A DNA stretch of 64,000 bases from Acidobacteriota bacterium (GTDB lineage: Bacteria; Acidobacteriota; CAIWXX01), in assembly GCA_040755995.1 (NCBI GenBank), contig JBFMAF010000024.1, forward strand, positions 192,001-256,000, in the 5' to 3' direction. The notes under the pieces were generated by a model, which was given only the letters and a program-made list of their open reading frames with translations, had not been told where the DNA came from and did not search any database. This document shows positions 41,101-54,281 of the stretch, in pieces (position 1 is the first letter of the stretch; each line of letters opens with the position of its first letter). Position numbers and translations under genes: made by a program.

Positions 41101-41919
41101 TCATTGGGAGCTCACGGCGTCACGCGATTGCACGTCTGCGATCGAATCCAGCGGAGCCTGAGCGCGAGCGACCAATAGCTCCTCCAGTCTCAGCGCGGAT
41201 GGGTATTGATCGAGATGAAGACCCTGTGCGAGGAATCGTTCGAACCCGCCGCCGGCCTTCTCGGGCTCACCGCTGCATTTTTCACTCACACTGTCCAGCA
41301 CCCACCTCAGCACCGAAACGGCCTGTTCGGGTTCCTGTGCCAGGCCCAGCTCTCCGATCATTGCGCCCAGGGCATCGAGCGCCTCGAGCTTGACCTGCCC
41401 GGGTCCCATCGCGGCGAGGAAGCTCGTGAGTCCGATCAGGAGATCCCTGAAGTCCTCCAGCACCTGTCCGAACCATCCGTGCTCTCGCCACTCCACACGG
41501 TCCACCGTCTCGAACCAGGCACGGAATGATCGAGCCGGCAGGACCAACGGTTGCACCCTGGCCTGGTCGGTGCTCATCCCCGCTGCAATGTCGGTGGCCT
41601 TGAACAGGAGACGGCTCCAGAGGTTCGCATAGAACTGCTGCATCGGCGGTCCGAAGATGCAGCGCAGGAGGAACTCCCGGTCAGGCGACATCTTGATCCC
41701 CGTGTAGATTGCCTGGACCAGCGACTCGAGGACCGCCGCGCGACTGCCAGCGTCGCGAGAGCGTTCGACGGCCTGGAGCAGGTGCTGGATCGCTTCCTGG
41801 ATCGGACGCATCTCCGCCGGAAGCTCCAGGAACCAGCTAATACCATCCCTGACGCCCTGCACGTCGCCGGCAGAGGCGGCCGTCATGAGATCCCGCGGTG
41901 TCAGCATGAGTGTCGTCAT
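41101..41919 (-). CDS. Hypothetical alpha-helical protein (272 aa)
   Basis: GGAGGAGG SD before ATG 41919; no family recognised; preceded by the island motif. Confidence 0.7.
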   Translation of the reverse strand: MTTLMLTPRDLMTAASAGDVQGVRDGISWFLELPAEMRPIQEAIQHLLQAVERSRDAGSRAAVLESLVQAIYTGIKMSPDREFLLRCIFGPPMQQFYANLWSRLLFKATDIAAGMSTDQARVQPLVLPARSFRAWFETVDRVEWREHGWFGQVLEDFRDLLIGLTSFLAAMGPGQVKLEALDALGAMIGELGLAQEPEQAVSVLRWVLDSVSEKCSGEPEKAGGGFERFLAQGLHLDQYPSALRLEELLVARAQAPLDSIADVQSRDAVSSQ

Positions 41920-41978: not shown

Positions 41979-42005
41979 GATTTGGCGAACAGGCCACATC
42001 TTGCG
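41979..42005 (-). promoter_or_regulatory. Island motif copy 1 (putative ECF promoter)
   Basis: Minus strand CGCAAGATGTGGCCTGTTCGCCAAATC; A/T tract upstream, ATGAGGG downstream. Confidence 0.7.
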
Positions 42006-42215
42006 TCCTCTGGCGAAAATTTTTTTCAGGCACCGGGCTCTGATCCGAGGGGTCCGTCACTCACCAGGCGGGAGGCGCTGGACACTGACACACGGAGACG
42101 CGGAGAGGAGGACCGGCTTCGCCTTCGCCTTGCCGCCACTTGAATTCCGGCCGCCCGCCTGCTAAGAATAATGCACGTCCCGGGTTCGTTTCGCTGGCGC
42201 CGATAACTGGGGGGG

Positions 42216-45200
42216 ATGATCGCGATGGAGGAGGGCTGCTCTCGCTCTGCACCCCCACACCGCCGGGCGAGGGCTCGGGTGCCTACCCAGGTGTGCTGTG
42301 GATCGGCCTTGTTGGCTGTGCTCGGTTCGCAGTCCGCCGATCTCTCGTCTCGGGCGCCCCGCGCCATTCATGTTGGAGAGACGCTTGAGGCGGAGATCGC
42401 GGACCCAGAACACGCCCGCCTCCGGCCTTCTTTGGGCCCAGGGCACCGGTTCATTTTCGACGGCAGGGCAGGGCAGAGGCTGACCATCGGCGTGGAGTCA
42501 TTCGAGTTCGATTCGTATCTGATTCTTTTCGACCCGGCAGGCCGCGAGATCGCATTCAGCGATGACAGCGCCGGTTTCTCCAACGCGTGCATTCGGAGGC
42601 AGCTCCCCGCGGACGGCGAGTATCTGCTTGTCGTCTGCGGCGCGACCGCTGATCACCTCGGGACGTACTGGCTCACGGTACGAGAACGCGATCACGAGCC
42701 GGATTACAGTGAGCGGGCAGCGACTGCGTACTACCGTCGAGGACTGGCATGGGCATCAAGCCGCGGGAGCCGGCGCGCCGAGAGCTTCCTCAATCTGGTC
42801 ATGGGCAGGTACTATCGCGAGCGCGGGCGCTGGGGGCAGGCGGAGGACTGCTATGCCCGGAGTCGCGCCGCGGCCCAGACAGCCGATCTTGAGGTCGCGT
42901 TGTGCGCGGCCGCAATCGAACGCGGCAGGCTGATGACTCAGCGCATGCGCTATGACGCGGCCATCCGGGAGTTGCTGCGCGCACTAAGGCTGAGCGCCTC
43001 GCTGCGCGCGGCTGAAGACGCGCAGGCACAGGCCTACGCGCAGATAGGTGACATTTATCGGTCCATCGGTCGCTCCCCCGTTGCTTCCGTCTGGTACCGC
43101 AAAGCCGCAGAAGCGACATCTCCCGACGGCCCGGCTTCGACCCGAGCCAGGGTTTATTCGTCCCTGTTCAAGTCATCACTTACATCCGACAGGGACGAAG
43201 CATTCGGGTATGCGAAGTCGTGCCTTGCGATGCGAGATGCAGTTGATCCCGTGCAGCGTGTCACGATCACCGCCGATTGGGCGCGTGTGGAAGGCGCGAG
43301 GGGGCAGCCAGAGGAAGCCCTCAGATTGGCCGAAGAGGTGTGTCGCGCAGCGCGTTCGCTCGGCTGCCGGGACATCGAGATCTCCGCGCTCTCACTTGAG
43401 AGCCTGATCGCTTGGTCTCTGCGCGACATGGATGGGACCATCAAGGCCGCCCGATCCGCCGCCGCCCTAGCTCGGCCGGAAGACGAAGATTCCGGGTCCC
43501 TTCGCGTCGCGCTCCAGATGCAAGCGAGCGGCGAGATGCTCCGGGGCGACTACCAGGCGGCCCTTGCGTCGTGCCTTAAGGCGCTCCCACTAGTGGAGCG
43601 AGGCTGGGAACGTGAGCCCGTTCCTGAAGTGCGGCAGGGCTATGCGTCGCAGACGAGGGGGCTTTGCACCCAAATCATAAGATGTCTGGCCGCTCTGAAT
43701 GCACAGGAGCCGAAGACGGGACATGCTCGCATGGCCTTTGATTTCGCTGAGCGCACCAGATGCCGGTCGTTGCTCGAGGAATTGCACCGTGACGAGTTCG
43801 AGCGTCAGGGGATGCGCGCAGCGCTCGAAGCTGAACAGACGCCACTGATGGTGCGCCTGTCCGCCCTCAGCCGTCAGCTCGCAGTCGCTCGTAGTGACGA
43901 TATGAGCGATCAGGGATTGCTGGACCGGCTGGAGGAAGATCGCGCGAGGCTCGTGGCGCAGCGTATGCTTTTGGAGGCGAGATGGAATGGGCACAGTACT
44001 TGCGAGAGGGCGAATTTGCCGGTCCCGCTGACCTGTGACCAGCTACAGTCAGGCTTCCTGCGGCAGCGGCCCAATACCGCCATCCTCGTCTACCAGCTGG
44101 GCGTCAAAGAGAGCTTCCTTTTCCTTCTCAGCCGGAGCGACGTGCGCCTCCTCACTCTGCCGGACTGGAACTGCATCGGTGGGCTCGTCAGGCAATGGCG
44201 TTCCGCCATCGTCCAACAGCTTCGCTCAGATGCCGGTGACGTGCTTCAGGTGCGCCACTACGAGGATATCGCTCACAAGCTCTATGCGACATTGGTGCAG
44301 CCGGTGGCGGACCACATACGAGGAAGAGATCTGGTTTTCGTCGCCGATGGAGTCCTGCACGAATTGGCGTTCGAGAGTCTCGTCACGTCCAGAGCTGATG
44401 ATGCGAGCAGCTATGCCGGCCTTCGTTATCTGGTTGAGGACCACGCGATCACCTATGCTCCGTCCGTCACGATTCTGGTCGAGGCCGAGCGCAGGGCAAA
44501 CGTGCGGCCTCCACCCGCCAGGAATCTGCTGCTGGTGGGCGACGCGGTGTTCACACCGGATGATCCCCGCGCCGGTGTTCCCCCGTCTACGCCGTCCGTG
44601 AGCTCCAACACGGGAGCAGGCAGAAGGGCGATGGCACTTCGTGCCGGCATCGGGAGGCTGCCGGCAACACGTCAAGAGGTCCTGGGCATCTCGGAGCTGG
44701 CCGAGAAGAGCAGTTGGCATTCGACACTCTGGATGGGATTCGACGCGGCGGAAGGAAGGCTCAAGACCACGCGGCTGTCGCAATTCCGCATCGTGCACTT
44801 CGCGACTCATGCAACCGCAGACCCAGTGGACGGCGAGTTCTCGGGCATCCTCCTTTCGTATGATCGCGACTCCTCGGACGAGGACGGGCTCCTTTCCGCT
44901 GCTGAGGTGAGAAGCCTGGATCTCGATGCCGAACTTGTCGTGCTCAGCGGCTGTTCCACGGCCGCGGGCCAGCGGACAGGCGCTGAGGGAGTAATTGGGC
45001 TGAGTCGCGAGTTCATGATCGCCGGGGCTGAGCGCGTGTGCGCATCGCTTTGGGATGTCGAAGACGGGTCCACACAGCGGCTAATGGGCACCCTATATGG
45101 ACACCTCCTCTCCAGAGGCGACCCCCCGGGTTTCGCGTTGCGGCAGGTGAAGATCGAACTCCTGTCCGCTGGTCTCTCACCCAGTCGCTGGGCCGCCTTC

Positions 45201-45221
45201 GTCTTGGCGGGAGCGCTGTAG
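42216..45221 (+). CDS. PPC + TPR-like + CHAT (caspase-like) protease
   Basis: PPC (FDSYLIL.DP.G..IA..DD); AFDFAERTRCRSLLE; HFATHA (His 44808) and VVLSGC (Cys 44952); ASLWDVED; WAAFVLAG. Confidence 0.92.
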   Translation: MIAMEEGCSRSAPPHRRARARVPTQVCCGSALLAVLGSQSADLSSRAPRAIHVGETLEAEIADPEHARLRPSLGPGHRFIFDGRAGQRLTIGVESFEFDSYLILFDPAGREIAFSDDSAGFSNACIRRQLPADGEYLLVVCGATADHLGTYWLTVRERDHEPDYSERAATAYYRRGLAWASSRGSRRAESFLNLVMGRYYRERGRWGQAEDCYARSRAAAQTADLEVALCAAAIERGRLMTQRMRYDAAIRELLRALRLSASLRAAEDAQAQAYAQIGDIYRSIGRSPVASVWYRKAAEATSPDGPASTRARVYSSLFKSSLTSDRDEAFGYAKSCLAMRDAVDPVQRVTITADWARVEGARGQPEEALRLAEEVCRAARSLGCRDIEISALSLESLIAWSLRDMDGTIKAARSAAALARPEDEDSGSLRVALQMQASGEMLRGDYQAALASCLKALPLVERGWEREPVPEVRQGYASQTRGLCTQIIRCLAALNAQEPKTGHARMAFDFAERTRCRSLLEELHRDEFERQGMRAALEAEQTPLMVRLSALSRQLAVARSDDMSDQGLLDRLEEDRARLVAQRMLLEARWNGHSTCERANLPVPLTCDQLQSGFLRQRPNTAILVYQLGVKESFLFLLSRSDVRLLTLPDWNCIGGLVRQWRSAIVQQLRSDAGDVLQVRHYEDIAHKLYATLVQPVADHIRGRDLVFVADGVLHELAFESLVTSRADDASSYAGLRYLVEDHAITYAPSVTILVEAERRANVRPPPARNLLLVGDAVFTPDDPRAGVPPSTPSVSSNTGAGRRAMALRAGIGRLPATRQEVLGISELAEKSSWHSTLWMGFDAAEGRLKTTRLSQFRIVHFATHATADPVDGEFSGILLSYDRDSSDEDGLLSAAEVRSLDLDAELVVLSGCSTAAGQRTGAEGVIGLSREFMIAGAERVCASLWDVEDGSTQRLMGTLYGHLLSRGDPPGFALRQVKIELLSAGLSPSRWAAFVLAGAL

Positions 45222-45277
45222 ACGCCTGCGGCGACACAGCCTCCACTCGATGCCGTCTCGGTTGATCACCGGTCGCG

Positions 45278-45466
45278 TCAGGGCTTGCTGGGACTACAGC
45301 AGTCCGCCCCGAACAGACAACAATCGTCGTCCAGCGTCATGGGTGGGTTGATTGTGCGCACTCCCGCTTGGTTGTGCTGCAAGGGGCTTGGTGACGGCGT
45401 CCACGCTGGCGAAGCCAGCAGAAGTGTACCCAGCAGTCCCAGAATGATCCATCGTACTACCGACAT
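45278..45466 (-). CDS. 62-aa secreted peptide precursor with C-terminal CC-x5-CC
   Basis: AAGGAGG SD; signal peptide MSVVRWIILGLLGTLLLASPAW; tail DDDCCLFGADCCSPSKP. Confidence 0.7.
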   Translation of the reverse strand: MSVVRWIILGLLGTLLLASPAWTPSPSPLQHNQAGVRTINPPMTLDDDCCLFGADCCSPSKP

Positions 45467-45579
45467 GGTTTCCTCCTTGTTGAATGAATGCCGTTGACCG
45501 ATCGCCTCGGCCGGCGGCGGTTGTGTTGTTTGACCGTGTTCCACCTGTAACCGTTGTTCATGTCCCTTCACCAAAGGAT

Positions 45580-45606
45580 GATTTGGCGAGAAGGGCACAT
45601 CTTGCG
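45580..45606 (-). promoter_or_regulatory. Island motif copy 2 (putative ECF promoter)
   Basis: Minus strand CGCAAGATGTGCCCTTCTCGCCAAATC, 24/27 identical to copy 1; A8 tract upstream, GTGAAGG downstream. Confidence 0.7.
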
Positions 45607-45636
45607 TGCGGAGCATAGTTTTTTTTCCAAGGCGTC

Positions 45637-45816
45637 GCGCGGGTGCTGGCGACCTCACAACGTCTGCCGCTGAAGGGCACTCTCCGAGTGCTGCTCGATG
45701 GCAAGGAAGCAGACCTGATCGAGGAAGTGAAGCCGCTTCGGGACCGCCTCCACGAGCTCCGATCCCGCATCGCGCCGCACAGTCGCACCACCGTCCTGGA
45801 TCTGGCCGGCGAGCCT
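45637..45816 (+). pseudogene. DUF3368-type (PIN-related) toxin 3' fragment
   Basis: AR..A....L...GTLRVLL.GK...LIEEVKPL.D.L.....RI.......VL.LAGE pattern. Confidence 0.6.
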
Positions 45817-45914
45817 GTAGCCGGGTCAGTGCGGGCCGCTTCGCGACCACCACACCAGCGGGCCGCCGTCCGCTGTTTCGGGGTTACGGCTGCGGACGAG
45901 GATGATGGATGGAC

Positions 45915-45962
45915 TTGCTCCGGGCCGATCTCGCTGATATCATAATGGAGAGTATGATATCA
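45915..45962 (+). promoter_or_regulatory. vapBC promoter and operator
   Basis: TTGCTC-17 nt-TATCAT; perfect inverted repeat TGATATCATA-8 nt-TATGATATCA (45935-45962). Confidence 0.7.
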
Positions 45963-45985
45963 AGGACACGGGGGAGGCAACTGGG

Positions 45986-46225
45986 ATGCGCACGATCATC
46001 ACTCTCGCGCCGGAAGACAAGGCGTGGCTCGACCGGGTGGCACGACAGCGTCACGTCCCGATGACTCGGATCGTCGCCCAGGCAGTCAAGGAGCTTCGAC
46101 GTGAATGGAGCTTTCTCGATCAGGATTTCGACCAGATACTTGACGAGACACGCGGCATCTGGAAACGAGCTGGCGGATTGACCTACCAGCGAATGCGCCG
46201 GGCCGAATGGGACAGGCGACAATGA
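45986..46225 (+). CDS. RHH/CopG-type antitoxin (VapB)
   Basis: MRTIITL..EDKAWLD; GIWK...GLTYQRMRRAEW; ATGA overlap with the PIN gene. Confidence 0.85.
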   Translation: MRTIITLAPEDKAWLDRVARQRHVPMTRIVAQAVKELRREWSFLDQDFDQILDETRGIWKRAGGLTYQRMRRAEWDRRQ

Positions 46226-46590
46226 GGCTGCTGCTCGATTCAGTGATCGTCATCGACCACTTCAACGGAGTCTCGAATGCTACAGCGTACCTCGCTGCCG
46301 TGCGAACGGAGGCTGCCGTGTCGGTGATAACTCGAGCGGAGGTCCTGGCGGGGCTCGATGACCTCGCTGCAGTCAAGGCCCAGCGTCTCCTCGACTGCTT
46401 CCCCACGCTGCCCATCGACAGAGAGGCGGCAGACCTCGCTGCGAGTCTCCGGCGCAGCCACCACTGGAGGCTCCCCGACGCATTTCAGGCTGCGCTCGCG
46501 CTCAGACACGGGCTCCTCCTCGTGACCCGGAACACGAAGGACTTCCCGCCTTCCAAGCACCGCTTCGTCCTCGTGCCGTATCGACTGTAG
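46222..46590 (+). CDS. vapC: VapC PIN-domain toxin
   Basis: LLDSVIVID; SVITRAE; LPDAFQAA; VTRNTKDF. Confidence 0.92.
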   Translation: MRLLLDSVIVIDHFNGVSNATAYLAAVRTEAAVSVITRAEVLAGLDDLAAVKAQRLLDCFPTLPIDREAADLAASLRRSHHWRLPDAFQAALALRHGLLLVTRNTKDFPPSKHRFVLVPYRL

Positions 46591-49500
46591 GTGTCCGGAG
46601 GATGCCCGCTCCGATCCAGCGAGCAGGAGCGTGGTCGCGCACGCAGCGGGTACCGCAGACGGGGCACGGAGGTGTGGACGCGGTCGTCGGCTGCCTGGAC
46701 CCGCCATGCACGTCCTCGCAGTTGTGCGACATCTCATTCTCGCCCCGGGCGCCGGTCACGACTCTGACTATGCTGAAGGTCGCGTCGCTTTCGTCCCACG
46801 GATCCTTGTCCAGGTCGCTCACTCGTGTGAGACAGTTCGTAGATGTCGGAGTCACGACCGGCCACTGGCAACTTCCCGTGTTGACGATTCCCGCCTTGAT
46901 CCGGCTCCAACTCTGCCCGTTGTTCCGAGAAATGTCAACGTTCACATTCCGCACGTTGCCGCCGGTCGTCCAGGCGATCGTTGCCGTCGTTCCCACCTTG
47001 AGCTGCTCGCCTCCGTTCGGCGATGTCACCGTGATGCTCGGCCGGATCGAGAACGGCTCCTTCGTCTCGCCGCAGAACTTCATGTTCGCAGCATCGCTCA
47101 CCCGCAGATAGCACTCCGCGGCCTCCGGCTCCGTCACGATCCAACTCAGGCTTCCCTCGTTCGTGTAGGTCGTGTTCTTCGGGTCGATGTGCTTCCAGTC
47201 GCCGCCATCCCGCTTGATCTGTATCTTCACGTTCTTCGGCGTCCCGGACGGGCTCCACTTGATCGTGTAGCTCTTCCCGTTCCTCAGCACATCGCCGCCC
47301 ACCGGCTTCTTGATCGTGAAGCCGTCGTTGATCGGGAACTTCGCATCGGAGGTGTCGGCTGTGACACCGCCGGCGTCTTTGATCTCGATCAGGCATTCGG
47401 TCGACGCTGGGCCCGTGACCGGCCATGGCAGCTCGCCGCTATTGGGCACCGATTCGCGCCCCGGATGCAACGACTCCGAGTAAGGCGCCTTCCCGGTGCG
47501 GCTCAGCGAGACCTTCACGTTCTGAATCCGAGTCATGTCGCCGGGGTTCCACTTGATGGTCTGCTTCGTCCCGATCGTTAGCCCGTCGTTCTTCCCATTC
47601 GGCCATTCCACCTTGATCACCATCTGCTGCGGCACGATCGAGAATGGCTTGCTCATGGCCGACGGATCGGCGTCCCCTGGATCTTGGATACGGACGCGCC
47701 AGCCGTCCCCAGAAAGGCCCTCGGGCACCGGCGGCACCTCGCACAGATAGTGCCCGCTGTTCTCGCAGGATGGCACGACTTCGATCGTCTCCAGATCGTG
47801 GTCGGGCAGGTTCTTGATGAGGTCGATCCTCACGTGTTGGCACAGCGACACGCTCGTGGCCACCCACTCGATCCTGTACTTGTTGCCGACACCAAGCAGC
47901 TCTCCTCCTTCGGGTCTGGTCACTCTCAGAGTCGCTGGCGCGGCCACGATGCGGAAGTGCTCGTCGCTCTCGTCCTTCACGCCAGCCGTGATCTCCTCCA
48001 CGCGGATCCGGTACGCGTTGCCCGGCGCGTCGTCAACAATCCACCGGCAGGAAGTCACATAGCCCTTCTCTGCAATGGGCCGCACGCGCTCCGGGCTGCT
48101 AGAGTCGTCCACAAGAGAGATCCTCAGTCCCTTGCCGCTCGCGAAGTGTCCGGTCAGCTCCCAGCTGATCATCACCTCGGTGCCCGCCTGAAATGTCTGC
48201 CGTTCCAGCTCGGTGTTGTGTGGGGGCACCCTGCCGCCGTTGGGATAGAGGACCTTGATGGCTCGATTCGACGGCTCGATCGTGAACGTGCCATCGCTCA
48301 GATCCTGTGTGTCTTCATTCCCGGTGTGAATCCGTATCAGGCACTGCTCGGATGGCGCGTTCGGCACGCTCCACTTGAACGACTTGCTCTTCGGATCGAG
48401 CGCGTTGGCTCCGTCCACCGCCTTCCAGTTGGTCCCGTTGTCTGTGGAGTACTTGATCGCCATCGTCTGCGTGCCGAAGTCACCATCGGCGATCCACACG
48501 ATGTTGTGCTCGGTGAGCGCTTCCCAGTGCTCACCGCCGTTCGGCTCACGCACGGTGAGCTTCTTCTGGACGATCGAGAACGGCGCATCGCTCGTGTCTT
48601 CCTCGGGCCCGGCCGTGTTGCTGATGCGGATGTAGCATCTCCCGGCGGCGGTGTCGGCAGTCCACTTGCACTGGCGTGCGGCCGCGTCGAAGGATGACTT
48701 GATGACCTTGATCTGAGTCGCGTTGCCCACCGAGATGAGCAGCTCGATACGCACCGTGGCGATGTTCGACGTGGCTCGCCACTTGATGGTGGTGGACTTC
48801 CCCACGATAAGCGCTTCGCCTCCGTTGGGGTACTCCACCACGATCTCGCCGGTCACAACGGTGCCCTGCGGAGACCTGTCCGTCTTGAGACGCATCCCGC
48901 GATCGTCGTAGAGGTAGCTCGCAAGGAGCGGCAGCTCTGCCGTGCCCGCGTCCGGTGTCGTGTCGCCGTCCATCTCGGCCAGCAAGCTCGACATGTCGCT
49001 GCCCGCCTCCGCATTCATCTTCCGCACCTCCGCGAGGCGGTTCTGATTGTCCCAGACATACTGGTAGACGCCGTCGGACTTGAGATTGCCGCGGCCGTCA
49101 TAGGGCAGGCCGATGATCTGGTTCTTCCCGTTGAAGGTCTGCACCAAGGGCGAGCTCGTGCCCTCGGTGATCTGCCGGGCATTTCCCAGTCCGTCATACT
49201 GGTAGGCGATCGACGGCACTCGGCCGGCGCTGTTCGGAGTGTACTCCACCTTGGTCAGCCGGTTCAGGTCGTCGTACTCGAAGGTCGCGTCGAGCTGGGG
49301 ATTGGTGTCGGTGATCGACGTGATGTTGTAGTTGCCGTCATAGCCGTATACAGCGCGATAGAGGTTCTTCGTGGAATTTGCGAGCCGGGCACTGCCCAGG
49401 TGACCTGTCTTGAGGTAGGCGGCGGTGAACGTGGTCCCGTTGGCGAACCCGATGCTGGTCGGCTGCTTGTAGTCCGCATAAAGCGCAGAGTCGACGATGC

Positions 49501-51300
49501 GCGCGCCGTTGCGCCTCACGCTGTCCGGGGCGTCGAAGCCGGTATTCGTGTACGTGATCCTCTGGCCATCCGGGTAGACGACTGCGCTGAGGTTGTTGCT
49601 GGCATCATGCTCGTACGCCAGCGTCTTTGCAGACATTCCCGGGATAGTGAGCGTCTCATGCTCGACAGACCCCAGCGGATTGTACGAGATGCCGGTCCGC
49701 TTCCACCCCTTCGTCGCGCTCTCGACCGAGCGGAGCGTCCCGTCGCCCGGGTCGTAGCCATAGTTCAGGTCATCGTCCCCGGAATTCAGGGTCTTGAGCT
49801 GGTTGAAAGTGTTGTAGCCGTAGTTGATTGCGGTGGTCGCCCAGACCTTCCGTTCGAGGTTGCCCGTGGTGGGGCTGTACGTGTAGCTGATCGTCCCGGT
49901 TTCCGGGTGGCTCTCGCTGGTGACATTGTCCATGCCGTCGTGGGAGTACCTCTGGGTCCGGCCGCCGCTGAGGTCGGCCCGCAGAAGCCGCCCGATGTCG
50001 TCATAGTAGTACGCCGTGGAGACGCCATTCGGTTCGGTGGTGAGCGTGATGCGGCCGGGCAGGCCGTCGTACCGGTATTTCCAATGCTTGCCGTTCGCGT
50101 CTGTCACATCCTTGAGGCCGTTCTCGAGACTCACGATCGTGGTCTTGTTCCGGGGGTCCGTGGTCTGCACAACGTCGCCGGCTTGATTGTAGATATAGCT
50201 GTAGACGTCCAGCGGGTCGGTGCTGCCCCTGGATTCCGCAACCACCCGGCCCTCCTTGTCCAGCTCCTTCCTGTACTGGAGCGTGGTGCCGGTCTTGAGG
50301 TCTTTCTCCGTGTGCCCAAGGGCGCGCCCGAGACCATCCCAGTACTTGACGATCTGCTTCTGCTCCTGAGTGACGGTTGCGCTTCTGCCGTTCTCGGCCC
50401 ATCGCACCGTGATGTTGGCGAACTGCCCGGGCATAGTGACGTCGGTCACGCGGCCCAGGTTGTCGTAGGAGAAGCCCATCGTCCCGCCGTGCTGATTGGT
50501 TTCCGTCAGAATCGAGCTGTCGTGCGGGCTGATGGTTCTACTGAATACGGTGAACCCATCCTGCCATTTCAGAAGCGACTGCACTCCGTGGTCGTACTTC
50601 GCGATCTGTTTGCCGGCGGAGCCCGGGAGGTCCGTCGTGATCGTGATCAGTGCCGGATTCGCCAGCTGGTTCTCGTAGCCCCAGGTAAGCCAGTTCCCTG
50701 ACCCCACCCACCGCTCGACCTGCGTGACGGCGCCCGTTGGGAAGTCGTACGTCGACTTCGTCTCCTTGAGCTTCCCCGACGATCCGGTCGTCGTCTGGTT
50801 ACTGACGTATGAGAGCATGTAGCTGTCTTTGAACCTCTGGTCGCTCTCGAATGCGTAGCTGTATGTGTCTGTGTAGCTGGCCGCGTGGGGGCCCGTGCCG
50901 CTCGAGTGCGTGATCGATGTGGGGAGCCCGCGCTCGTACGGCCCGGTGCGGTCGTAATAGTATGCGTCGATCGTGGTCTGAGCCGGAAGCGTTGTGCGCT
51001 TCACGCTCCTTCTGAGAGGAACCCATATGGGCGCACACTCGTTGAGATGATTGATATCGCCGATCACGTACCTCTGCCAGCCGTACCACTCATGATAGCT
51101 CGTGTCCCCGTACCACTTCTCCGTGATCACAGGGTCCAGCGTGACGTCGCCGGGCAGACCGTATTTGGCGTAGGCCTTCTGTGTGGCCGGTCCGGTCACA
51201 ACTACCGTGTCATCTCCTGCCAGGTTGAATCCTGGATACTCGTAGCTCCATTCCGCGGTCTCGCCCTCGCCATCGACGATGGCCCTCCGCCATACCACGC
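46502..51300 (-). pseudogene. Rhs/YD-repeat protein fragment with seven PNGGE-type Ig-like repeats; lacks own start and Rhs core end
   Basis: YD repeats (YDNLGRVT, HPETG, YDDLNRL, YLYDDRGMRLK), then seven repeats V..PNGGE....G....I.W...D.SD..F.I (46767-48847); no PxxxxDPxG motif. Confidence 0.8.
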
Positions 51301-52227
51301 GCGATCCCCATGGTCCGCTCTTACCACCGCGGTGAGCTCCGCGCGCTCGGGGCTCATCGCCACAATCGACAACAAGCACGCGACGCCGTCGAAATGCTCC
51401 TCCGGGTGGAACCTGAACGAAAGCCTCCCAGGCGCCGACTGTCTCACCGAATACGGCCCGGCCGTGGCTCCGGGCTCCGCGCTTGCGATGGCCAGCACAC
51501 GGTCGTCGTAGATCACATCGAACGACCCATACGACGGCCACACGCGCGCAGCGACGATCACACGCACGGAGAACTCCTCGCCTGCGGCCGTCTGGATCTT
51601 GCGCGGATCGAAGGCAACCGCCGCTCGCGCTGGAAGAACGTTTTGTACACTCGGCGCCGCGGTCGTCGGGACTGAAGGGGCCGGTGGGCTCGCACATCTC
51701 CGCTCCTCTGCGAGCACCGCTCCAGCACGCCCTCCGGCCGGCGCACCACCGCCAGCGACGGCCTCGAGTGGCTCCTCCATCGCTCGCAAGCGGATGGCGG
51801 CAATCTGGCGCTTCAAGAGGCCATGATCGTTGAAGGGATCCGTGCGGACGGCTTGCGCATACGCCTGGTATGCAGCCGCAAGCTGCTCCGAGCGCTCCAG
51901 CTCTTCGCCGCGCGCAATCAGAGCCTCCGCTCGCTGGGCGATGGCGGAAGCCAGAGCGGCCGAGTACTTCGGATCGCCTGGATCATGCTTCAGAGCTTCC
52001 TGCAGATACCCGATTGCATCCTCGTGCTGTTCAGCACGTTGCGCTCGCATCCCACTGTTGTAAGCACGCGACGCCGCGCACCCCGCGCTCGCGAGGAGCG
52101 CGAGTATCGTCAGCATGCACAAGCGGATACGGCGTCTTCTGGCAGATCCACCCGTGCCGCTGGGCCTCGCCGCGGACCTTTCGGCTCTCCCTACCCCTTC
52201 TGTCACCTCAGTCACATGTCCCCTCAT
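51202..52227 (-). CDS. Lipoprotein with TPR and cohesin-like domains (start uncertain; 3' end possibly disrupted)
   Basis: Lipobox LASAGC; TPR helices; GEEFSVRV.......FDVIYD..VL......G. Confidence 0.7.
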   Translation of the reverse strand: MRGHVTEVTEGVGRAERSAARPSGTGGSARRRRIRLCMLTILALLASAGCAASRAYNSGMRAQRAEQHEDAIGYLQEALKHDPGDPKYSAALASAIAQRAEALIARGEELERSEQLAAAYQAYAQAVRTDPFNDHGLLKRQIAAIRLRAMEEPLEAVAGGGAPAGGRAGAVLAEERRCASPPAPSVPTTAAPSVQNVLPARAAVAFDPRKIQTAAGEEFSVRVIVAARVWPSYGSFDVIYDDRVLAIASAEPGATAGPYSVRQSAPGRLSFRFHPEEHFDGVACLLSIVAMSPERAELTAVVRADHGDRAWYGGGPSSMARARPRNGATSIQDSTWQEMTR

Positions 52228-52233
52228 ATATAT

Positions 52234-52260
52234 AGTTTCGCGAGAAGGCCAATTCTCGCC
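52234..52260 (-). promoter_or_regulatory. Island motif copy 3 (divergent)
   Basis: Minus strand GGCGAGAATTGGCCTTCTCGCGAAACT, 19/27 identical to copy 2; T tract upstream, ATGAGGGGACATG downstream. Confidence 0.55.
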
Positions 52261-52407
52261 GGAGAAACAAAAAGAACTTTCCTGAGCAGAATCTGCAGCC
52301 GAAATTTGGCCCAGGGAATGGGCGCGCTTGTGGGAGGAAACGCCGGACTGTGCACTACCACTTGGCGCTAAGTTATGCATGACTATCATCTCCATCGCAC
52401 ACGATAC

Positions 52408-52436
52408 AATATAGTACTTGTGGAGACCTTTGTCAA
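52408..52436 (-). promoter_or_regulatory. Sigma70-type promoter
   Basis: TTGACA-17 nt-TATATT on the minus strand. Confidence 0.65.
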
Positions 52437-52854
52437 ATGCGATAAAGGCGCCCCGCGCAAGTTAGCACCATAGGGCGTATCGGCCTTTCGCTCCGCTGGT
52501 CGTGGGGGCTAATTCATAAATTAGGTTGCCAGCGGGCAACGACAACCATATACAACACTGTAGGTTCATTGTGGCTACCAATCATTCGGACGCTAGCCAT
52601 CTTCTCCTCCTGCAGGAATACGCGCAAAATACTACAACGCAGTCCGAGAACCTGTGACACGAATCACACGGGAAGGCGTCTGCGACCCACATTCATGGCC
52701 CTCGCGACGGCCCCCGATGATGGGGTTTCGCATCCGCGGTAGGGCGGCTCCCCGTGTCGACCCAGCGCAGATACTCCGGAGTCTACTCCTGATGCCGCGT
52801 GAGAAGATCGCTGAGGTACTGGTGCGAGTTCGCTGAATTCGGCAAGCAGTGCCT

Positions 52855-53649
52855 TCAGCTCGTCGATCGTTCGATTATCGCCTTCAGTCTCTCCGCCTGC
52901 CTCCGTAGCTCGCCGTTCGAATCGATGATCTTGCGGAGCTCGTCGAGTGCAGCATCGGGCTTGTTCGCGCCCAGGTATGCCAACGCCAGATAGTATCGAG
53001 CGCGTTCGAGAGACATTCCGGCGCTCGTTTCTGCGGCACGCTTCAACGGCCCAATTGCATCCGCGGCCTGACCCATGAGCACAAGAGAGACGCCCTGGTA
53101 GAAGTGCGCCTCAGCGTTCTCCGGGTCCAGCCTGGCTGTCACCTCCAGCTGTTTCGACGCGGACGCGTAGTCTTGTTTCAGGTACGAGGCCATGCCTTCA
53201 TCGAATGCCTCCCAGCCGCCGGCACCACGAAGCACTGGGCGGCTTGCTGGAGGTACATAGGCCGCCTTGGGCACGACCATCCCGGTCCAGAGCCTGGTCT
53301 CAGATCCTGATCCGCGGCCTGACAAGACGAAGTATGCTGTCACCGCCCCGCCGGCGACCAACAGAACGGAGGCTGCCAGTAGCGCCGCCCGCCCGCGCCA
53401 GGCCCATGCTGGCGGCATCCTTTGCGGCAGATCGACGGCTGGAATCTGCTCTGCCCGCGCTGCGCCGCGTAGCACGGCCTGGCGATGATTTCGCAGGGTC
53501 GCCATATGGGGGGCCATCGCGAACACCTCTTCGTGACAGTACGCGCATTCCCACATGTGATCGACGAAGGCCTCGCGCTCACCCTCGTCCAGCATGCCCA
53601 GCTCATAGCGGGTTATCAGCCGACCGACTGCAGGGTCAGTACATTTCAT
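52855..53649 (-). CDS. Zinc-finger (zf-HC2/ZAS) transmembrane anti-sigma factor with extracytoplasmic TPR
   Basis: HMWECAYC (HxxxCxxC); TM LAASVLLVAGGAVTAYFVL; VLRG; TPRs; directly downstream of the sigma gene. Confidence 0.88.
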   Translation of the reverse strand: MKCTDPAVGRLITRYELGMLDEGEREAFVDHMWECAYCHEEVFAMAPHMATLRNHRQAVLRGAARAEQIPAVDLPQRMPPAWAWRGRAALLAASVLLVAGGAVTAYFVLSGRGSGSETRLWTGMVVPKAAYVPPASRPVLRGAGGWEAFDEGMASYLKQDYASASKQLEVTARLDPENAEAHFYQGVSLVLMGQAADAIGPLKRAAETSAGMSLERARYYLALAYLGANKPDAALDELRKIIDSNGELRRQAERLKAIIERSTS

Positions 53650-53726
53650 AGGTCACTCCCTTCCTCTGGATCGAGAACCGCGATCTGTGCTGAAACGGCC
53701 TCTGCTCGGTCCCGGCACTATCGTCA

Positions 53727-54281
53727 TCATTGCGGCCTCCCAGAGAGTATCTCCCGCAGCGCCTTGCGGCACCGAAGCAGCCATTCGTCAACGCGGGCTC
53801 TCGGGGCCCCCAGACTCTCAGCCAGCTCCCGCACGCTCACCCCCTCGCATATTGCGAGAAGCAGCGCCCGGCACCGAGGCCTGCTCTCGCCCAGAAGCTC
53901 GATGGCGCGCCGGACTGCGGGGTACATCAGCGCGGCCTCGATCTGGGGCTCCTGCGACCTGCCCCGGTCAACGGACTCTGGATCGCCAGAATGCAGCTCC
54001 ACCTGTCGCCTCTTCCTTTGCCTCTCATAGTAGTAGTAATTGCCTATGATGTTTCGGAGCACAGCATCGGTATACTCCAGCAGCCCTTGGCGTGTCTGGA
54101 TTTCCGAGAAGTGCTCCTGGACCACCATCAATGTGTCATGTACGACGTCCTCTAAATCTCCCTCACTTACTTTAGATTTGGCGAGAAAGCGGTATCTTGC
54201 GCGCAAATACAAAAAAAGTTTCTCCCGGGCCTCCGGGTCGCCCGCCCGCGCCAGGTAGAAAAGGTCGGCGATCCTACCCAT
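53727..54281 (-). CDS. ECF-type RNA polymerase sigma factor
   Basis: ARAGD.EA.E.LF, DLEDVVHDT, LRN...NY (region 2); G.S.RELA..LG....V...L.RCR..LR (region 4). Confidence 0.9.
   Translation of the reverse strand: MGRIADLFYLARAGDPEAREKLFLYLRARYRFLAKSKVSEGDLEDVVHDTLMVVQEHFSEIQTRQGLLEYTDAVLRNIIGNYYYYERQRKRRQVELHSGDPESVDRGRSQEPQIEAALMYPAVRRAIELLGESRPRCRALLLAICEGVSVRELAESLGAPRARVDEWLLRCRKALREILSGRPQ
54175..54201 (-). promoter_or_regulatory. Island motif copy 4, inside the sigma CDS
   Basis: Minus strand CGCAAGATACCGCTTTCTCGCCAAATC, 22/27 identical to copy 2; T7 tract upstream, GTGAGGG downstream. Confidence 0.65.

Follow-up and report, generated by a model that had tools for sequence, protein, structure and literature searches.

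Which sigma factor reads a 27-bp motif that is repeated around a CHAT protease gene in an acidobacterial genome, and why does one copy of this motif lie inside the coding region of a sigma factor gene? The question is raised by a window of 64,000 nucleotides (nt) (positions 192,001 to 256,000 of contig JBFMAF010000024.1, assembly GCA_040755995.1, Acidobacteriota bacterium), which contains the genes for a sigma factor of the extracytoplasmic function (ECF) type, here called sigma A, a predicted anti-sigma factor and a TPR-CHAT (caspase-like) protease. For ECF sigma factors, the promoter motif is usually deduced from the sequence upstream of the sigma factor gene. Here, the copies of the motif were found to belong to two classes. 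Class A sites are probably promoters for sigma A, with the copy at position 52234 likely being a promoter of a paralogous sigma factor, and the copy inside the sigma A gene would drive the expression of the anti-sigma factor as a negative feedback.

Two Classes of Sites in the Window

A pattern search located the minus-strand motif CGCAAGAT-N9-TCGCCAAATC exactly at the three positions reported in a first-pass annotation of the sequence (Table 1), and a search of both strands of the window with up to three mismatches returned the same three copies only. The identities given there relative to the copy at 45580 (24, 22 and 19 of 27 positions) were obtained again by recomputation, and an A/T tract upstream and a purine-rich stretch resembling RTGARGG downstream were seen at all four annotated copies. 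The fourth copy, at 52234, is also located on the minus strand and is diverged in sequence. Rather than being a weak class A site, it is a full member of a second class. Over the conserved core of 18 positions, it agrees at all 18 with an element within a paralogous sigma factor gene on contig C36 of the same genome, compared to 12 of 18 for class A. This second class, designated class B and seeded from the 52234 copy, has the form GGCGAGAA-N9-TCGCGAAACT, followed by an AT run. The repeated motif is a real feature, but it consists of two motifs.

Table 1. Sites and genes in the window (positions are those of the window; aa, amino acids).
Feature	Position	Strand	Remarks
272-aa hypothetical protein	41101..41919	minus	predicted helical-repeat-like; class A target
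Class A site CGCAAGAT-N9-TCGCCAAATC	41979..42005	minus	exact match; upstream of the gene for the 272-aa hypothetical protein
TPR-CHAT (caspase-like) protease, 1001 aa	42216..45221	plus	His865/Cys913 at the expected dyad motifs
62-aa peptide	45278..45466	minus	hydrophobic N-terminus, CC-x5-CC tail; in related cassettes, the CHAT gene is flanked by homologues
Class A site	45580..45606	minus	exact match; upstream of the Cys-peptide gene
TPR lipoprotein-like gene	51202..52227	minus	preceded by the class B site, with an ATG in frame 6 nt past it
Class B site GGCGAGAA-N9-TCGCGAAACT	52234..52260	minus	matches the element within the paralogous sigma factor gene at G000:C36:197745
Near-consensus sigma-70 promoter-like site TTGACA-17-TATATT	52408..52436	minus	upstream of the class B site
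Predicted anti-sigma factor, 264 aa	52855..53649	minus	zinc-finger motif 31-38, one transmembrane segment at ~90-109, TPR C-terminal part
ECF sigma factor (sigma A), 184 aa	53727..54281	minus	TIGR02937, profile, fold
Class A promoter-like site within the sigma A gene	54175..54201	minus	exact match; codons 27-36, region 2.1 helix
A/T tract (UP-like) of the internal site	54203..54222	minus	coded by Glu20-Leu26

The Site inside the Sigma Factor Gene

Sigma A was identified as an ECF sigma factor by TIGR02937 (57.1 bits, with a cut-off of 42.9), by a profile search, in which E. coli sigma-E was hit with 2.8e-10, and by its predicted model (pLDDT of 89), for which 1or7 is the top Foldseek match. 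Like ECF (group 4) sigma factors, it contains sigma2 and sigma4, lacks sigma3 and has a length of about 180 aa; among the NCBIfam subfamilies, no subfamily cut-off was reached. The copy at 54175 had been annotated as a promoter copy like the others. While this copy is indeed exact, it is located inside the open reading frame of sigma A, which had gone unremarked. Its -35-like box corresponds to Arg27-Tyr30 and its -10-like box to Leu33-Ser36, and the codons covered encode the helix before the DVV motif, which corresponds to region 2.1. A transcript from this site is predicted to start near position 54166, about 517 nt upstream of the anti-sigma start. In a matrix scan of the genome, no class A site was identified upstream of the sigma A start, so that positive autoregulation of sigma A is not expected.

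The genome (G000, 7.7 Mb) contains a paralogous cassette on contig C36, consisting of a peptide, a CHAT protease, a sigma factor (sigma B) and an anti-sigma factor. The codons on which sigma A carries its class A site hold a class B site in sigma B. About 60 sigma-like open reading frames are present in the genome, and, judged by eye, a comparable element at the same position is absent from the other 46 of the 48 that were anchored.

The gene directly downstream of sigma A, combining a zinc finger, a transmembrane segment and TPRs, is predicted from gene content to encode the cognate anti-sigma factor, and the internal site faces this gene, as in internal promoters of the rseA P3/PrshA type. 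An open reading frame directly follows the sigma factor gene in 68 of 78 homologous loci, most of these being of the zinc-finger anti-sigma type by eye, and zf-HC2 was found in four of the six scanned.

Distribution of Both Classes in the Genome

Throughout the genome, CGCAAGAT-N9-TCGCCAAATC was matched six times exactly, nine times with at most one mismatch and 12 times with at most two. Of the 11 class A sites in the genome, eight are found beyond the window, mostly ahead of signalling genes, which does not support the earlier view of a regulon restricted to the island. In the genome-wide matrix scan that had been proposed with that view, the intergenic copies of both classes faced genes, but the sites spread beyond the island. 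The 11 class A sites scored 35.6-44.4 bits and the next best match 20.4 bits, with the sites' own seeds included in the matrix; for class B, three seeds recovered four more sites, giving seven. All 11 class A sites agree with the internal core of sigma A at 16-18 of 18 positions and with that of sigma B at 10-12, and all seven class B sites agree with the sigma B core at 15-18 and with the sigma A core at 12-13. An A/T tract (at least 0.58 AT) is located on the 5' side of 7 of 10 intergenic class A copies and of all six intergenic class B copies, the genome background being 2.2%.

Recurrence was evaluated for every 7+7 gapped word in 61 sigma-like open reading frames with a correction for background, raw counts having been rejected as dominated by GC-rich words. 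The word of the 54175 copy occurs ten more times in the genome with 0.03 expected, so that the recurrence of class A is not due to chance. The sigma B word recurs three times (0.01 expected). Other high ranks in the same test were a tandem repeat on C28 (top) and the class A site upstream of a sigma-like gene on C56 (tie). The sigma-like open reading frame G000:C49:6926-7492 also stood out, with a gapped word that recurs 14 times with 0.35 expected.

Outside the window, class A sites precede genes for a PAS hybrid kinase, CheW, an ion channel and two sigma-like proteins, in addition to two further kinase-like genes read from sequence. Among the class B targets are PKD/Ig lipoproteins, another Cys peptide and a hybrid kinase, and a 223-aa gene has one class B and one class A site in tandem upstream. 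The two sigma-like genes (G000:C3:106888-107520 and C56:36108-36932) are related and each lies directly behind a class A site; a sigma cascade via both is suggested. Also noticed were back-to-back promoter-like pairs around one common A/T tract, which typically separate a hybrid kinase gene from a peptide gene; they are located at G000:C36:193583/193651 and, in a second genome (G001), at C43:5387/5445, C140:27880/27930 and C287.

Constraint on the Codons in the Sigma Factor Family

Homologues of sigma A are rare but scattered. At E<=1e-10, 45 representatives were obtained, homologues occur in 13 of 401 genomes of the phylum, and a word-based protein search had the query itself as its sole match. 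The loci compared were 80 metagenome loci kept of 122, and 27 loci from genomes with titles such as Acidobacteriota, Zixiibacteriota and Ignavibacteriales. The element is present in four of five same-family sigma factors.

The codon analysis comprised 72 and later 75 genes, without duplicates, truncated and unmappable loci. Among 170 columns in the 75 genes, the five strongest for rare synonymous codons are the two left-box codons and three codons at or after the right box, and the spacer codons between the boxes are flat, with no excess of rare codons. Taking backgrounds from the 72-gene set, Val is encoded by GTA in 30 of 34 cases (background 9%), Arg by AGR in 54 of 62 (12%) and Lys by AAA in 56 of 58 (36%); for the adjacent Arg, AGR was found in 0 of 57. 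The pattern survived reduction to 40 genes with less than 60% identity and to 26 genes with less than 50% identity, the latter giving AGR in 17 of 22, AAA in 17 of 17 and AGR for the adjacent Arg in 0 of 14. Since the rare-codon peaks fall only on the two boxes, a DNA element is kept beneath the protein code, and the codon comparison shows a synonymous constraint on both boxes throughout the family. A hairpin or dyad is conserved neither in class A nor across the family, and no consensus fold was obtained for class A. Mutual information ranked residues 165-169 of region 4.2 top for the -35 bases, and residues of region 2.3-2.4 top for the last -10 base.

In the relatives, the own internal variant of a locus was within the top 5% of 48 variants at 12 of 44 loci, compared to 3 of 44 in a reversed control; this test used nearby A/T-preceded sites per locus, and kin loci are not independent. 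Within G001, two other genes are preceded by exact copies of the internal core, and an outside copy is identical to the internal one over 26 nt including the spacer. Like G001, locus L054 shows the same arrangement as G000, with an own-variant copy outside the sigma factor gene, and A/T-preceded near-copies of the own variant were found before genes for peptides or secreted proteins at L054, L075, L124, L132, L139 and L049. The spacers of the outside class A sites are more alike among themselves than to the sigma A spacer (2-6 of 9 positions). Judged from these loci, conservation is highest at the internal site, which is nevertheless not obligatory, and a regulon as large as that of G000 is the exception.

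A further motif class, GGAAGGA-N12-CGAAACT (class D), was observed with eight exact copies in G001 (C43, C140, C235). Six of the seven copies viewed are A/T-preceded and intergenic, and no exact copies were found in four other genomes.

Proposed Circuit and Alternative Explanations

Class A was assigned to sigma A because of the orientation of the sites, the one-sided A/T tract, the lack of a required dyad and the identical core within the sigma A gene. That the sites of both classes are ECF promoters is considered likely, and so, to a slightly lesser degree, is the negative feedback through the internal copy. The first-pass annotation had proposed bipartite ECF promoters read by the sigma factor of the island; orientation, A/T tract and core give this indirect support for the three class A copies, but the 52234 copy matches the paralogue on C36.

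We infer promoter activity, sigma assignment and the steps of the following circuit from the sequences. An ECF sigma factor is held by its anti-sigma factor until the latter is destroyed. Sigma A would be held by the membrane zinc-finger anti-sigma factor, which a signal would destroy, probably via the linked TPR-CHAT protease. The CHAT protease would be the trigger, a role that has been suggested for DdvA (PMC11506125) and demonstrated for Csx29/Csx30 (PMC10028731). Free sigma A would then fire about ten outside targets, including the Cys peptide, PAS/hybrid kinases, CheW, the ion channel and the two sigma-like genes. From the internal promoter, fresh anti-sigma factor would be made, but only a headless sigma message and no extra sigma factor; the response may be self-limiting, because this promoter yields anti-sigma without sigma. 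Basal sigma A is probably provided by a housekeeping promoter. No clear excess of the sigma-70 -10 hexamer was obtained upstream of the sigma factor genes (20 of 63 cases, with 12 of 63 in two controls). Through the class B site at 52234, which is next to the near-consensus sigma-70 site, the lipoprotein gene would be placed under sigma B.

Several results weigh against this circuit. The matrices for class A and class B include their own seed sites, and even so the weakest class B site scored 21.6 compared to a background of 20.5. In the family, 15 of 63 tree rows are not element-like, and a same-family sigma factor on G001:C43 lacks the element despite the eight exact copies of its cassette motif in G001. 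A tree test of the covariation between -35 box and region 4.2 gave only one or two independent pairs, too few for a decision. At 32 of 44 loci, no top-5% site of the own variant lies nearby, in a test with a generic matrix the own variant came out ahead at only 4 of 8 loci, five internal variants searched in five distant genomes gave two plausible intergenic copies in total and no large regulons, and in an exact search G018 and G035 hold the internal copy only. A clear hydrophobic signal segment was not seen in the CHAT protein of the window, so that its access to the anti-sigma factor is hypothetical, and the leader of about 517 nt is twice that of rseA P3.

With the sites still taken as ECF promoters, the internal copy might mainly give an N-terminally shortened competitor sigma factor without the first helices, or hold polymerase on the sigma factor gene and so damp full-length transcription. 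An in-frame ATG or GTG is located about 7 nt after the -10 box in G001, G002, L048, L049 and L054, and the large distance to the anti-sigma start would fit both versions. However, sigma A and sigma B lack an in-frame start at that place, GTG at codon +4 accounts for 26 of 51 Val codons, near the background of 44%, and a later Met is not conserved, which leaves a short competitor or polymerase holding rather unlikely. That another sigma factor encoded in the genome reads the promoters, such as one of the two sigma-like proteins among the class A targets, and not the product of the gene holding the copy, is scarcely credible. The many sigma-like open reading frames offer candidates, and the two targets have their site just upstream, in the classic position for autoregulation, but the internal element is conserved in the family and differs between the paralogues in step with the two site classes, and the genes on C3 and C56 are near-twins that cannot explain classes B and D or the relatives.

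Other readings dispense with promoter function. An operator of a separate dimeric regulator, repressing the sigma factor gene and the targets, would be in line with the long conserved core and with the class B cores, which are imperfect inverted repeats (4-7 of 7 pairs). In class A, by contrast, the left box is invariant and its would-be mirror half varies (3-6 of 7 pairs), polarity is strictly one-way with the A/T tract, each class matches the sigma factor gene that holds it, and a conserved regulator gene was not seen in the cassettes; an operator is regarded as improbable. That the internal element acts on RNA or translation, as a rare-codon pause or hairpin, with the outside copies being remnants copied from the sigma factor gene, would account for the clustering of rare codons and for the outside copy in G001 that includes the spacer. 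Here, particular bases in the two boxes are constrained and the spacer is free, the adjacent Arg is never AGR, class A lacks a consensus fold, the outside class A spacers resemble each other more than the sigma A spacer, and the flanks of the class D copies are not sigma-like when translated. We consider this very improbable. Two candidates were ruled out: a promoter on the opposite strand for the divergent CHAT gene, since the element persists when CHAT is downstream and the outside copies fix the polarity, and a sigma-54 site, whose consensus spacing is not matched.

Taking up again the reading with an internal anti-sigma promoter, a wider version was formulated that is possible but rather doubtful. 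CHAT-linked ECF sigma factors across phyla would store their own promoter in the codons of region 2.1, as a specificity barcode that tracks the recognition helix. In the Acidobacteriota branch this would form a peptide-signalling circuit, in which the sigma factor induces a secreted CC-x5-CC peptide that acts back on the caspase-like protease, the internal promoter resets the switch and two paralogous circuits are cross-wired on shared targets. 

On the main reading, this sigma factor family would have been missed by inference from upstream DNA because its site sits inside the gene. If that reading is right, the recognition sequence of each member could be read from its own codons, and dozens of natural sigma-promoter pairs with different boxes would make the specificity of regions 4.2 and 2.4 testable and provide orthogonal parts for synthetic circuits. 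The family would also be a clear example of one set of bases evolving both as protein sequence and as DNA signal, and would provide a first predicted regulon for CHAT-protease/ECF cassettes beyond Myxococcus and CRISPR type III-E.

Neighbouring Genes

The CHAT gene is present in 34 of 51 loci of at least 4 kb, divergent in some and downstream in others, with the element being kept either way. In the window, it has neither a class A nor a class B site directed towards it. The peptide next to it belongs to a family of secreted-type peptides of about 60 aa with a CC-x5-CC tail, located tail-to-tail with the CHAT gene and without a Pfam family; besides the window, members were found at L024, L022, L023, L044, L049, L050, L054, L056, L057, L059 and L124. 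The peptide is a candidate signal or protease inhibitor. For the 272-aa protein, no family was identified and the atlas matches were uninformative; its gene sits where related cassettes hold the sigma factor gene, divergent from CHAT.

For the TPR lipoprotein-like gene, the position of its ATG makes a leaderless start possible. AT-rich regions of the TTGACA type likewise lie upstream of two paralogous lipoprotein genes, at about 14150 on G000:C28 and about 142190 on C31, of which at least the latter precedes an Rhs-like gene. In the window, an Rhs-repeat/Ig-domain open reading frame (46502-51697, minus strand) with an apparent mid-gene start overlaps the 3' end of the lipoprotein gene; it ends without a recognisable C-terminal domain and looks rearranged. 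In a VapBC-like pair (45986-46590, plus strand), the gene for a putative antitoxin of 79 aa overlaps a PIN-domain gene, and an inverted repeat is located just upstream at about 45937-45962.

Comparison to Known Systems

RshA of Corynebacterium glutamicum is a zinc-type, soluble anti-sigma factor. The logic of an internal anti-sigma promoter is already known from E. coli rseA P3 and from Corynebacterium PrshA. In E. coli, rseA P3 is a sigma-dependent promoter in the rpoE coding region which gives an anti-sigma transcript without sigma; its start is located 228 nt ahead of rseA, and a sigma-E promoter is present upstream of rpoE in addition (PMC8595263). Common to both systems is a promoter of the sigma-dependent type inside the sigma factor gene that serves the anti-sigma factor. 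Here, however, the site covers codons 27-36, lies about 517 nt before the anti-sigma gene, has no upstream copy and has other boxes. In C. glutamicum, PrshA inside sigH is SigH-dependent and produces an anti-sigma-only transcript; it lies within 301 bp upstream of rshA, that is, in the later part of sigH (PMC3489674). The anti-sigma promoter within the sigma factor gene is shared, but the C. glutamicum system lacks a CHAT protein or peptide, and the part of the report used describes no family-wide fixed codon position (PMC3489674).

A literature search did not return the family, the motif or a fixed site in region 2.1; subscription papers lay outside this search, so that a description of the ECF group could be missed. 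What was not found in the literature searched is a fixed, dual-coded site near the gene start that tracks the specificity of each sigma factor, in an unclassified CHAT-linked ECF family.

The DdvS/DdvA system of M. xanthus contains an ECF sigma factor, a zinc-finger transmembrane anti-sigma factor, a TPR-CHAT module and several cognate promoters. DdvA fuses TPR-CHAT to the anti-sigma factor, GTAA-n16-CGT upstream of ddvS provides positive autoregulation, and DdvS drives CBASS (cyclic oligonucleotide-based antiphage signalling system) and CRISPR (PMC6061681, PMC11506125). In contrast, CHAT is a separate gene here, the 264-aa anti-sigma factor lacks it, and the targets are mostly signalling genes. 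The class A and B boxes differ from that motif, and relatives have GTAAG but CAA instead of CGT after 16 nt.

Type III-E CASP comprises the TPR-CHAT protease Csx29, Csx30 and the ECF factor CASP-sigma with several motif copies in the locus (PMC10028731). Protease, anti-sigma factor, ECF sigma factor and multiple motif copies in the locus are common to both; however, Cas7-11 and Csx30 are absent here, and sigma A reaches 20.5 bits on NF041236 (cut-off 100). ECF54 is found near TPR-CHAT proteins, is actinobacterial, has no anti-sigma factor and has the predicted boxes GTATCAG/CTCC (PMC7826278), whereas the present system is Acidobacteriota-linked, has an anti-sigma factor and uses other boxes. 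On the basis of its predicted genes and sites, the system is not a member of DdvS/DdvA, CASP or ECF54, and it is one that would work like rseA P3 and PrshA.

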